Shown piece after piece: positions 12,187 through 14,698 of a stretch of DNA of 64,000 nucleotides. The stretch's first letter is position 1. Each line of letters starts with the position of its first letter. The DNA is from Escherichia coli (GTDB lineage: Bacteria; Pseudomonadota; Gammaproteobacteria; Enterobacterales; Enterobacteriaceae), in assembly GCF_003991155.1 (NCBI RefSeq), contig NZ_CP031293.1. The stretch is one strand, 5' to 3'. The notes below the pieces were generated by a model. It did not search any database and had not been told where the DNA came from. It worked only from the letters and a program-made list of their open reading frames with translations. A program made the position numbers and the translations under genes.

Positions 12187-12306
12187 TTTAAGCTGTGTGG
12201 CGAAGTGAGCACACTTAACAGATTACGATATTTTTTGCGTACGCGTTAGTGTTTTGATAGAATTTTCAGCCACATAAAAATTCATTCTTATAATTCGGGA
12301 TATATA

Positions 12307-13170
12307 ATGGATATAACTTGTTTAGAATGTGGCAATGTTCTTGACGACCCAACTGTAGCTTGCGATAAATGCGGTGCCACGCCTCATGTTGTAGTGCTGG
12401 GCAAACAATCGTACTTTCCTATTGGTGCTGTAACAGCAAATCTTGAAAAAAATGATTCAAGAGCATTTGATTATCGATTAGGTGAAGTTTGGGATCTAAA
12501 AAATGAAGTCACATCTGAATTCATAACCAGAATTGAGAAAAAATTTAGCCGAAAAAACAAATTTCATAACTTCCTAGACTCAGATCACAACCCTTCATCC
12601 ATTCCTACGATCCTAAAAAAATACATTAATAAGAATAATGAATTCATTGATTTATCTAGAGCTATAATAGAGAAGCTTAAACATAATGCTAATAACGAAT
12701 CGAGAGTTGCCCAACTTCAGGGGGGGAGCGTTGTTTTCATCCACTATAAGTCTACCGAACCAGAGGATTTGGGGAAACTTCTAATCGTAATGGTTGATAA
12801 ACAAAGCGCCTATGACTTTGATTCGGATAAGTTGACCCCAACAAGATTAAATCCAATTAATACCGATGCCTTACGGCAGGCTGCGATGTTCGATTTAACT
12901 TTATTCGAAGCCAGTTATCCAGAAAACAAGGGTGACTCATATGTACATTTCTTGCAAGGTAAATCTAAAAGCGATTTTTTCAAAGACTCATTAGGTTGCC
13001 GACATGATTCGGACAATAAAAGAAGCATTCAGCAATTATTCAGTGCTATAGATATTTTTGCTAGTAAAAACTCACTCGGTCGTGTACTGCGTGATACTAT
13101 TGACAATGAAGTTAAATCCTTACTGGAAAAAAATCAAAAGATAAACACGGAAATAAGTCCGTTAAGATAG
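12307..13170 (+). CDS. AT-rich cargo gene 1: N-terminal zinc-ribbon protein of unknown function (likely frame-broken; see open frame 13128-13481)
   Basis: 287-aa ORF; N-terminus CLECG...CDKCG (C-x2-C / C-x2-C); visibly AT-rich; antisense to the phage late operon between Q and holin. Confidence 0.6.
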   Translation: MDITCLECGNVLDDPTVACDKCGATPHVVVLGKQSYFPIGAVTANLEKNDSRAFDYRLGEVWDLKNEVTSEFITRIEKKFSRKNKFHNFLDSDHNPSSIPTILKKYINKNNEFIDLSRAIIEKLKHNANNESRVAQLQGGSVVFIHYKSTEPEDLGKLLIVMVDKQSAYDFDSDKLTPTRLNPINTDALRQAAMFDLTLFEASYPENKGDSYVHFLQGKSKSDFFKDSLGCRHDSDNKRSIQQLFSAIDIFASKNSLGRVLRDTIDNEVKSLLEKNQKINTEISPLR

Positions 13171-13481
13171 AGGATATTTCAAAAATAATTGACTCATGCC
13201 TGACTGATTCACACAAATGTAAGGGAACGTTTGTCGATTTTGTTAATCTTAATGGTTTCCAGATTGACCCTCAATTTGAACCAACTCCTAAAGCAGCTGA
13301 AAGCGCGCTTACAATTGAAGTGGCAGATAACGACAATAATTTTAAGTTGAAAATAATGCGTGGAGCTATTGGAGACGAAAAGTCAAATAAGCCTGTAATT
13401 CTCACTGACAACAAATGCGAAATTGTGATAAAATTGAGTCAGGCAAATTATGATGAACTCAAAAGATATAGAGACAGCTAA
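13128..13481 (+). other. Start-less open frame (-1 relative to cargo gene 1) that probably encodes its C-terminal part
   Basis: Frame open from 13116 to stop TAA 13479-13481, about 115 protein-like codons, no long ATG-initiated ORF; begins at the A7 tract 13127-13133; ends 2 nt before the next gene's ATG. Confidence 0.5.
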
Positions 13482-13483
13482 TA

Positions 13484-14698
13484 ATGACAATTGCTGATGA
13501 CTTATCAAGATTAGCGCAGATTATTAACGGAGCCTCAAGCAGAGTTGAGGGCTACTACACTGTCATAAGTCTTGAAGAAAGCATTGTTATTGTAAATAGT
13601 TCTGAAATAATTAGACTGTTACAATCTATAGGTTATAAAAAGGCAACAACCTGCATCGAAAATAATGAAATTTGGCTAGATCGCCAAGCTTCATCTTGGG
13701 ATGATGCTATAATTTATGAGAATGTTGAGTCTTTTTGGTCTAGAGTAAACACCCAAAACGCTCTTCCGAAAAATTATATCATCGGAACGCCGTTAATACT
13801 CCCTACTTCTAAGAATGAAAGCATCGAAAAAATCCATATTTTCTTTATGTGGAAAGATATCCTTTCATTAATTGCTGATCATCATAACAGTGACTGCTCT
13901 GTCTTATTTTTCACCAATGAAGACAAAAGTTATACAGTCGAACTCACGCATTTTTTACAATATAGCGAGATTAATCGCTTATCGAACTCGTCTCTTAAAT
14001 ATGAAATTATAAAGGAGCTTCTCGACACAATAAAAATCAATGATTTACACAAAAGCGAGCGCAAGCTCGTTATACGCTCAGCCATAAACGAAGTATTTAA
14101 AGCAAATGGTACGTTCAATTTCTTTGACTTGCTTAACTCTACTGAACTCGTCAGGAAAAAATATGATGAACTATATGAGATTTACACAAAGAGGTTTTCT
14201 GTAAATAAAATTCTTAACGAACTCGATGAGAAAAATCTTGAGTTCACGAGTAAAATTAACGAATTCATATCATCTAATCAGACAAAAGCATTGACTATTC
14301 CCGGTGCATTAATAGCAGCTGGTGGCTTAGTGAAGGCTAATGAAACAACCGAAGCAATATTGATTATCGCAGGACTTTGGATGATAAAAAAAGTCAATTA
14401 CATTTCTATTGAGATATTCAATGAAACATTCGACAACTTACGTTCTCGAGTGGAGTCCGCTTTCGATAAGTATTTAAAGTTTGAAGAAAATAAAGAAATC
14501 AAAGATAATGCAGATAGTATTAAGAGTAGCATTACAGGTTTGATTGATAAAGCTAAAAAAAGGATGAGAACTGTTAAATATCTCGCATCAGCCATGTTTT
14601 ATGGAGGCCTTATTTACGTTGGATATAAACAGTTCCCAGTCTTTTTTGAAAAATCGGCAGTAAATCTATTTTATTTTTTATGCCATACTATAAGCTAA
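13484..14698 (+). CDS. AT-rich cargo gene 2: 404-aa protein with predicted C-terminal transmembrane segments, unknown function
   Basis: Hydrophobic stretches ALTIPGALIAAGGLV / AILIIAGLWMI and YLASAMFYGGLIYVGY near the C-terminus; tightly coupled to upstream frame; 3' end overlaps Q 3' end by 21 nt (convergent). Confidence 0.6.
   Translation: MTIADDLSRLAQIINGASSRVEGYYTVISLEESIVIVNSSEIIRLLQSIGYKKATTCIENNEIWLDRQASSWDDAIIYENVESFWSRVNTQNALPKNYIIGTPLILPTSKNESIEKIHIFFMWKDILSLIADHHNSDCSVLFFTNEDKSYTVELTHFLQYSEINRLSNSSLKYEIIKELLDTIKINDLHKSERKLVIRSAINEVFKANGTFNFFDLLNSTELVRKKYDELYEIYTKRFSVNKILNELDEKNLEFTSKINEFISSNQTKALTIPGALIAAGGLVKANETTEAILIIAGLWMIKKVNYISIEIFNETFDNLRSRVESAFDKYLKFEENKEIKDNADSIKSSITGLIDKAKKRMRTVKYLASAMFYGGLIYVGYKQFPVFFEKSAVNLFYFLCHTIS

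Follow-up and report, generated by a model that had tools for sequence, protein, structure and literature searches.

The question raised by this locus is what two AT-rich genes are doing between the antiterminator gene Q and the holin gene of a lambdoid prophage. The stretch of DNA analysed, referred to below as the window, is 64 kb of the Escherichia coli contig NZ_CP031293.1 (assembly GCF_003991155.1). It holds a DLP12-type prophage, with intD at a tRNA-Arg gene, emrE, ybcN, ybcO, rusA, Q, lysis genes, nohD, and head and tail genes. Both open reading frames (ORFs) of the insert lie on the plus strand, between a holin gene and a Q gene that lie on the minus strand (Table 1). An earlier note on this DNA, made by reading the letters without database searches, had proposed that the insert is horizontally acquired cargo with a function expressed in the lysogen, such as phage defence, superinfection exclusion or a membrane-acting effector, and had recognised neither gene as a member of any characterised family. 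We consider it near certain that the insert is DS-1, an anti-phage system carried here as cargo beside Q. Its first gene is referred to as DS-1A and its second as DS-1B.

Identity of the insert between Q and the holin gene

The insert stood out by composition. The G+C content of positions 12267–14677 was 34.8%, compared with 50.7% for the lysis genes and 49.3% for the region from Q to ybcN. Positions 12267–14698 formed the stretch of 2.4 kb with the lowest G+C content in the whole window, and 0.16% of the 2.4-kb windows were as low. The description of an AT-rich, plus-strand pair between Q and the holin gene (0.348 against about 0.50 in the flanks) was thus accurate. The tight coupling of the genes was also confirmed, as intact DS-1A encodes 391 amino acids and DS-1B starts 2 nt after it. 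The left end had been placed at 12187, which falls inside a minus-strand terminator (12189–12168); DNA unique to the module begins at about 12262–12267.

The product of DS-1B was identical to WP_000150292.1, an accession annotated on identical DNA. DS-1A corresponded to WP_000355468.1 apart from a deletion of 1 nt, the two being identical through residue 276. Both proteins were scored against NCBIfam equivalog models with curated cut-offs. For NF053868 (DS1_1_antiphage; cut-off 330 bits), the truncated ORF of the window gave 349 bits and the intact allele 451 bits, and for NF053869 (DS1_2_antiphage; cut-off 315 bits) DS-1B gave 375 bits. Recent product names from the NCBI Prokaryotic Genome Annotation Pipeline are 'nucleoid-associated anti-phage protein' and 'anti-phage protein'. 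Hence the statement that neither gene is recognisable does not hold: there is a named model for each, and the first gene is also a clear member of the NA37/YejK family. Neither protein was matched in PADLOC-DB v2 (2023), a version older than DS-1. The same DNA was present in 105 of 5,426 complete E. coli genomes.

DS-1 is already known: it has been published, cloned and shown to defend, and both of its proteins have been named by NCBI. The name comes from the DefensePredictor study of DeWeirdt et al. (Science 2026, PMC13092281; bioRxiv January 2025), in which WP_000355468.1 and WP_000150292.1 make up the working id D390, that is, DS-1 (Tables S6, S8 and S11 therein). When both proteins were cloned with their native promoter region, seven phages were restricted (PMC13092281, Tables S6–S8), which bears out the central proposal made from the letters: acquired cargo, expressed from its own promoter, with an anti-phage function and a component that presumably acts on the membrane. 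The values of −log10 efficiency of plating (EOP) in Table S7 of that study were 7.6 for Bas1, 2.7 for Bas26, 1.7 for Bas3, 1.7 for T3, 1.0 for T5, 0.9 for T7 and about 0 for SECphi27. Small plaques were recorded for Bas26, Bas3, T3, T7 and SECphi27, and not for Bas1 or T5. All these values refer to the intact allele. Bas01–13 are T1-like Drexlerviridae and Bas26 is T5-like (PMC8594841).

The published DS-1 and the copy in the window share the same DS-1B protein, the gene order and the spacing, and the DNA preceding the genes matches that of other E. coli carriers; they differ in that the window copy has a frameshift in DS-1A. A consensus scan found a candidate sigma-70 promoter upstream of DS-1A with 9 of 12 consensus matches, which by itself is no evidence of function; the published construct defended under its predicted native promoter region (PMC13092281). 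DeWeirdt et al. list the YejK nucleoid-associated domain as newly validated in defence and leave DS-1 without further discussion. Their account of it consists of the plaque phenotype and domain labels, without a mechanism, an analysis of the genomic slot or an allele survey.

The two proteins and their likeness to type II PANGU

The NA37/YejK domain of DS-1A was found by Pfam at residues 64–376 (E 1.5e-23), and a phmmer search matched the protein to the YejK structure 9be2_A (E 1.2e-9). YejK, the 37-kDa nucleoid-associated protein of E. coli (PF04245; PDB 9be2), belongs to the same fold family. Unlike YejK, which has no equivalent N-terminal extension, DS-1A begins with about 60 additional residues that carry a CxxC...CxxC motif; its gene also differs in sharing an operon with that for a membrane protein and in lying on mobile DNA of low G+C content. 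When DS-1A was considered as a housekeeping YejK orthologue, it scored 81 bits against the 341-bit cut-off of the NF001557 equivalog, and that assignment was rejected. The zinc ribbon claimed for this gene in the earlier note could be read directly from its four cysteines. Pfam zinc-ribbon matches were weak (E 0.14–1.1), and the CxxC...CxxC pair recurred in nine of the 12 distinct homologues inspected (2/3 in one set and 7/9 in another). It was missing from a Pseudomonas-type copy (loci L011 and L012), from Pseudomonas moorei (L023) and from Marinobacter (L026).

DS-1B, the putative effector, consists of an acidic alpha/beta N-terminal domain followed by long helices with hydrophobic segments. 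The net charge of its N-terminal 265 residues was −9, and the domain was consistently acidic across 54 homologues (family mean −12). Three hydrophobic segments, at residues 268–285, 287–306 and 364–386, were conserved in the family, in agreement with the hydrophobic C-terminus that had been noticed in this 404-residue protein. A confident AlphaFold2 model (predicted local distance difference test score 88.7; predicted template modelling score 0.71) placed helices at 220–282, 288–331, 337–383 and 385–403 after the alpha/beta domain. The family comprised 304 clusters at 50% identity (E ≤ 1e-3). No match for DS-1B was obtained in Pfam, PADLOC or PDB sequence searches, and PHROGs was uninformative, the protein belonging to phrog_5023, a family with no assigned function.

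A survey of co-occurrence, as had been suggested for this pair, showed strict pairing. Related loci were sought with a 12-sequence alignment as the query, and each of the 16 informative loci had a gene for a DS-1A homologue just upstream of one for a DS-1B homologue. Eleven of these loci represented species in a scan that took a single genome for each species, and five were metagenome or NCBI contexts. The hosts included Pseudescherichia, Yersinia, Affinibrenneria, Proteus, Phytobacter and Citrobacter (Enterobacterales being among the hosts), as well as Pseudomonas, Marinobacter, Pseudoteredinibacter, Thalassotalea and a contig binned as Lactobacillales. The identities of the DS-1A and DS-1B homologues co-varied across loci, and the two genes overlapped or stood close together. 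Their neighbours included Druantia DruM/DruF, a methyltransferase with a PD-Lambda-5_A-like protein, a PDC-M01A/PtuA-like ATPase, a MobQ relaxase and an IS21 element; three of the homologous pairs again adjoined a Q antiterminator. Wherever DS-1 was seen, it lay in a prophage, an island or one of a few plasmid records, and no locus lay in an obviously conserved core context, a setting that the earlier note had named as one that would speak against cargo. A tblastn search of DS-1B against 50,697 phage genomes gave no match. The Lactobacillales contig is a 2.6-kb piece of a metagenome-assembled genome, and its pair is 48% and 38% identical to the E. coli proteins; a DS-1 pair in a Gram-positive bin reflects either mis-binning or cross-phylum transfer.

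The arrangement of DS-1 resembles that of PANGU, described by Li et al. (bioRxiv 10.64898/2026.04.06.716658, April 2026). PANGU consists of a nucleoid-bound, YejK-like nucleoid-associated protein (NAP), PagA, and an effector, PagB; phage-induced degradation of the genome frees PagA, which then binds and activates PagB (10.64898/2026.04.06.716658). In type II PANGU, the NAP Pag2A is paired with Pag2B, whose N-terminal domain is acidic and 'DNA-mimicking' and whose C-terminal region is transmembrane. In experiments with one type II operon, taken from an E. coli strain, both genes were required, neither was toxic alone, and the infection dynamics were abortive. In the PANGU-Ecu system, Pag2A fused to green fluorescent protein came off the nucleoid upon T4 infection, and Pag2A bound the acidic domain with a dissociation constant of 19 nM. 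T4 escapes type I PANGU through mutations in the EndoII nuclease. How the type II membrane effector is activated was left open (all from 10.64898/2026.04.06.716658). The DS-1 and type II PANGU reports appear not to cite each other, and the text of Li et al. contains no occurrence of zinc ribbon or DefensePredictor.

Like type II PANGU, DS-1 has the gene for a YejK-like NAP first, by the Pfam and 9be2_A matches given above. Its two genes form an operon with a 2-nt gap in the intact allele, as the genes of type II PANGU are adjacent and less than 40 bp apart. Where Pag2B has its acidic domain and transmembrane region, DS-1B has an acidic N-terminal domain and conserved C-terminal hydrophobic segments, DNA mimicry and membrane insertion being putative for DS-1B. 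Both systems occur in E. coli, linked to other defence genes. T1-like, T5-like and T7-like phages degrade host DNA. For T1 and T5 this is also stated by Li et al. (10.64898/2026.04.06.716658). Because gene order, spacing and domain logic match and the sensitive phages degrade host DNA, we favour the same kind of mechanism for DS-1, with a confidence slightly above even.

By this mechanism, DS-1A would rest on chromosomal DNA in the uninfected cell, with its zinc ribbon in addition to the YejK-like domain. Degradation or remodelling of the host chromosome by an infecting phage would release it, and free DS-1A would then bind DS-1B through the N-terminal domain of the latter, which would be cytoplasmic and, being acidic, DNA-like. 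DS-1B, presumably anchored in the inner membrane by its C-terminal hydrophobic helices, would damage the membrane, and the infection would be aborted.

Several observations weigh against this mechanism. The likeness to Pag2A and Pag2B is one of architecture and published descriptions. The assays of PANGU-Ecu used T4, and neither of the two systems that Li et al. studied gave protection against T1 or T5, whereas DS-1 restricts T1-like and T5-like phages and Table S7 of PMC13092281 has no T4 row. The reported ranges are T4 or Bas34 for type II PANGU and T1-, T5- and T7-like phages for DS-1; expression differed as well (induction by isopropyl β-D-thiogalactopyranoside for PANGU, the native promoter for DS-1). 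The strong block of Bas1 without a small-plaque flag could mean direct immunity rather than abortive infection. Fold searches with DS-1B returned generic helical bundles only, with ClyA-family pore formers and CorA non-significant. Its hydrophobic segments are also short, the maximum 19-residue Kyte-Doolittle mean being 1.56.

Frameshift alleles of DS-1A and competing explanations

The frameshift in the first gene, also claimed in the earlier note, is real. Over positions 12000–14750 the window was identical to an intact copy, except that a poly-A tract had seven residues (A7) in place of eight (A8). The product in the window has 276 native residues followed by 11 out-of-frame residues. Among 106 complete-genome records, A7 was found in three, in two different prophage backgrounds, the other 103 differing from it. 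The window and E. coli LWY24 (NZ_CP054556.1) both carry A7 and are identical only up to position 18933, where LWY24 alone has an IS3 element in the ybcK recombinase gene; the window thus belongs to a different but closely related strain. Because the two sequences diverge there, the A7 allele must have been sequenced independently, and an assembly error is unlikely.

The allele was not rare in a wider look-up of exact sequences. The A7 product (287 amino acids) was found on 373 contigs, the A9 product (279 amino acids, ending in LEKKIKR) on 97, and the intact protein on at least 1000. Further products, re-framed or shortened at the N-terminus, started around a G7 tract, one of 230 amino acids on 87 contigs and one of 265 on eight; the G7 tract differed in three of the 106 complete-genome records, in one of them by 2 nt.

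Cut short after residue 276, DS-1A lacks the C-terminal third of its NA37 domain. Since this third is lost and the type II PANGU operon requires both genes, DS-1 is probably non-functional in the window, with its defence off. A functional system would have both genes intact; the window locus is a DS-1 member with a frameshifted DS-1A. Taken as a whole, the explanation composed of DS-1 identity, a PANGU-like mechanism and a copy that is off seems to us moderately probable.

The variants at the homopolymers A8 and G7 may mark a mutational hotspot or, alternatively, a switch for phase variation of a defence gene. As a switch, the A8 tract and perhaps the G7 tract would turn DS-1 on and off by slippage, so that the system would be a phase-variable, contingency-type prophage defence and the frameshift not a gene loss. 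The −1 (A7) and +1 (A9) products are both common and A7 occurs in two prophage backgrounds, which speaks for this proposal; we nevertheless regard it as quite improbable.

Four other explanations of the pair were weighed. DS-1A might sense phage DNA itself, be it the incoming linear genome, replication intermediates or unusual structures, and then recruit or activate DS-1B. YejK-family proteins bind DNA without sequence specificity, and DS-1A has the NA37 match; the zinc ribbon, which YejK lacks, could supply a specific recognition surface, and the 10^7.6-fold block of Bas1 without small plaques resembles an early, complete restriction. The departure of the PANGU NAP from the nucleoid on T4 infection and the escape of T4 from type I through EndoII mutations speak against it, nothing in the analysis shows selectivity for phage DNA, and we hold this explanation to be unlikely. 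DS-1B could also be an inner-membrane superinfection-exclusion protein that blocks DNA entry, with DS-1A as a regulator or accessory, as the prophage location, the membrane-type C-terminus and the strong effect on envelope-injecting siphoviruses would allow. T1-, T5- and T7-like phages are, however, generally considered to differ in receptor and in route of entry. Strict co-inheritance and co-variation with a DNA-binding protein are likewise unexpected for an injection blocker, and type II PANGU needed both genes and gave an abortive phenotype; superinfection exclusion is accordingly rated as distinctly improbable.

The tight coupling of two genes, the second of them encoding a membrane protein, would also suit a classical toxin–antitoxin pair, in which DS-1A restrains the membrane toxin DS-1B until host shut-off by the phage depletes DS-1A. 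A frameshifted DS-1A nevertheless accompanies an intact DS-1B on hundreds of contigs and in three complete genomes. Because such alleles are common, DS-1B appears to be tolerated without full-length DS-1A, an indirect indication that the pair does not show the intolerance of partner loss that would mark a toxin with its antitoxin. Neither PANGU gene was toxic alone, and a toxin–antitoxin pair is disfavoured as very unlikely. Plasmid- and prophage-borne NA37 proteins are thought to be accessory nucleoid proteins, and DS-1 might by the same token serve mainly outside defence, with a prophage nucleoid protein acting on the transcription of prophage and host, by shaping or silencing it, beside a membrane partner unrelated in function. 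The published EOP data are a direct plaque-assay phenotype and the pair is found in defence-island and hotspot contexts, against which this last explanation is extremely unlikely. Lambda RexAB is a further lead, being a prophage pair in which a cytoplasmic sensor and an inner-membrane effector abort infection; its locus differs in lying next to cI and not Q, and the PDB searches, beyond which no similarity was sought, showed none to DS-1B.

The Q-proximal slot and its cargo

The insert occupies a slot in which other prophages carry other genes (Table 1). Homology of the window to SfII, SfIV, PA-2 and porin-carrying lambda-like phages spanned 12000 to about 12256–12266, and an O104:H4 prophage with a different lysis cassette shared 12167–14750. 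The other cargoes (lc/nmpC in PA-2/DLP12 and those of SfII, JS316 and AR_0014) encode proteins unrelated to DS-1, so that the slot alone is common to them. Like DS-1, they have Q on one side and, on the other, the conserved block that precedes the holin gene, and they are mostly on the strand opposite to Q. Hence the Q-proximal slot of DLP12/SfII-type prophages is a hotspot at which unrelated defence modules are exchanged. An 'empty site', with Q joined directly to the holin-proximal region, was not found among the 5,426 E. coli genomes.

The position had been equated with both the nmpC slot of DLP12 and the stx slot of Stx phages. In Stx phages the toxin genes are downstream of tRNA genes. 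In the O104:H4 prophage, DS-1 stands next to Q and upstream of the tRNA genes; the comparison with the lc/nmpC slot was therefore upheld and that with the stx slot was not.

The cargo reaches the very end of Q. DS-1B overlaps the 3′ end of Q by 21 nt, and the gap is 3 nt in SfII and 26 nt in JS316. Nucleotide homology among Q alleles of 91% identity ended at about 14721, some 43 nt before the stop codon, which means that some 14 codons at the end of Q differ from one cargo to another. The Q of the window was 73% identical to that of SfII. As a side observation, Q gave weak matches to region 4 of extracytoplasmic function (ECF)-type sigma factors (E 6e-5 and 1.6e-4), which fell well short of the cut-offs.

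In a six-way alignment of six cargo variants, conservation of non-coding DNA in the interval from Q to the holin gene was confined to a block of about 95 nt. The block holds, in order, a weak −35-like hexamer (CTAACG/TTTACG), an invariant spacer (ACGTACG.AAAAA) and a positionally conserved −10-like TAtnnT. A conserved segment, TGTTAAG.GTG.T.ACTTCG.CACAC, follows and overlaps the place where the PA-2 record J02580 annotates a CRP site; a terminator scan found the strong intrinsic terminator mentioned above at the end of the block. As Q needs a cognate promoter-proximal site and the cargo sequences are mutually unrelated, pR′ and tR′ most likely lie in this block. By that arrangement DS-1 would be situated between Q and pR′, outside the late transcript, a placement that the alignment makes a little better than an even bet. 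The description of the insert as antisense to the late operon is then probably inaccurate. A literature search on the DLP12 late promoter yielded nothing usable, and an Rfam search of 11900–15200 gave no credible match.

Table 1. Features of the DS-1 locus (window coordinates) and cargo of the same slot elsewhere (coordinates of the locus named)
Feature	Coordinates	Strand	Remarks
DS-1A, putative sensor gene	12307-13481	+	frameshifted; remainder of the gene in a different frame, up to 13481
Truncated DS-1A ORF	12307-13170	+	287 amino acids
Zinc-ribbon motif CLEC...CDKC of DS-1A	12319-12372	+	Cys5, Cys8, Cys19, Cys22
G7 tract in DS-1A	12720-12726	+	possible second frameshift hotspot
Poly-A tract, frameshift site	13127-13133	+	A7 here, A8 in the functional allele
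DS-1B ORF	13484-14698	+	404 amino acids
DS-1B hydrophobic segments	14285-14401; 14573-14641	+	residues 268-306 and 364-386; conserved
Candidate sigma-70 promoter of DS-1	12254-12281	+	TTGATA, 16 nt, AAAAAT; about 25 nt upstream of the start codon
Conserved late-control block	12168-12262	-	candidate pR′/Q-binding site/tR′
Lambda-family holin	11689-12015	-	opens the lysis cassette and bounds the slot on the left
Antiterminator Q	14678-15034	-	118 amino acids, WP_001205470.1; convergent with DS-1B
Slot cargo in SfII	L003 2802-4416		PDC-M53A/B
Slot cargo in strain JS316	L007 4407-6134		TIGR04255 protein and two hypothetical proteins
Slot cargo in strain AR_0014	L008 4470-7331		Dcm methylase, HEPN-like nuclease (annotated) and NsnA/PD-T4-2-like DUF262 protein
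Slot cargo in PA-2 and a lambda-like phage	L005 2085-3167; L006 1492-2589		porin lc/OmpD

Two further genes of the prophage were observed. A second known defence gene encodes a BstA abortive-infection protein (16720–17649, minus strand; PADLOC BstA E 3.6e-121) and lies at the start of a second low-GC tract, in which the 2.4-kb windows starting at 16351–18651 have a G+C content below 0.40. The iss gene for a bor-like 'increased serum survival' lipoprotein (10426–10719, plus strand) lies between rzpD, encoding an Rz-type endopeptidase, and nohD, on the opposite strand, and is another lysogen-expressed cargo gene of this prophage.

The locus itself has little discovery value, as DS-1 had been predicted, cloned and shown to defend in the 2025 preprint and the 2026 Science paper; it does illustrate that a by-eye reading of composition and gene position can find genuine defence cargo. 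What is new here is the link between DS-1 and PANGU, the analysis of the slot, the strict pairing survey and the recurrent frameshift in DS-1A. The link with PANGU gives DS-1 a testable mechanism, in which the sensing of chromosome damage by a nucleoid protein would be coupled to a membrane effector. The recurrence of the homopolymer frameshift implies that many annotated DS-1 loci, that of the window included, are probably non-functional. If the phase switch were true, lysogen populations would be a reversible mix of defence-on and defence-off cells.

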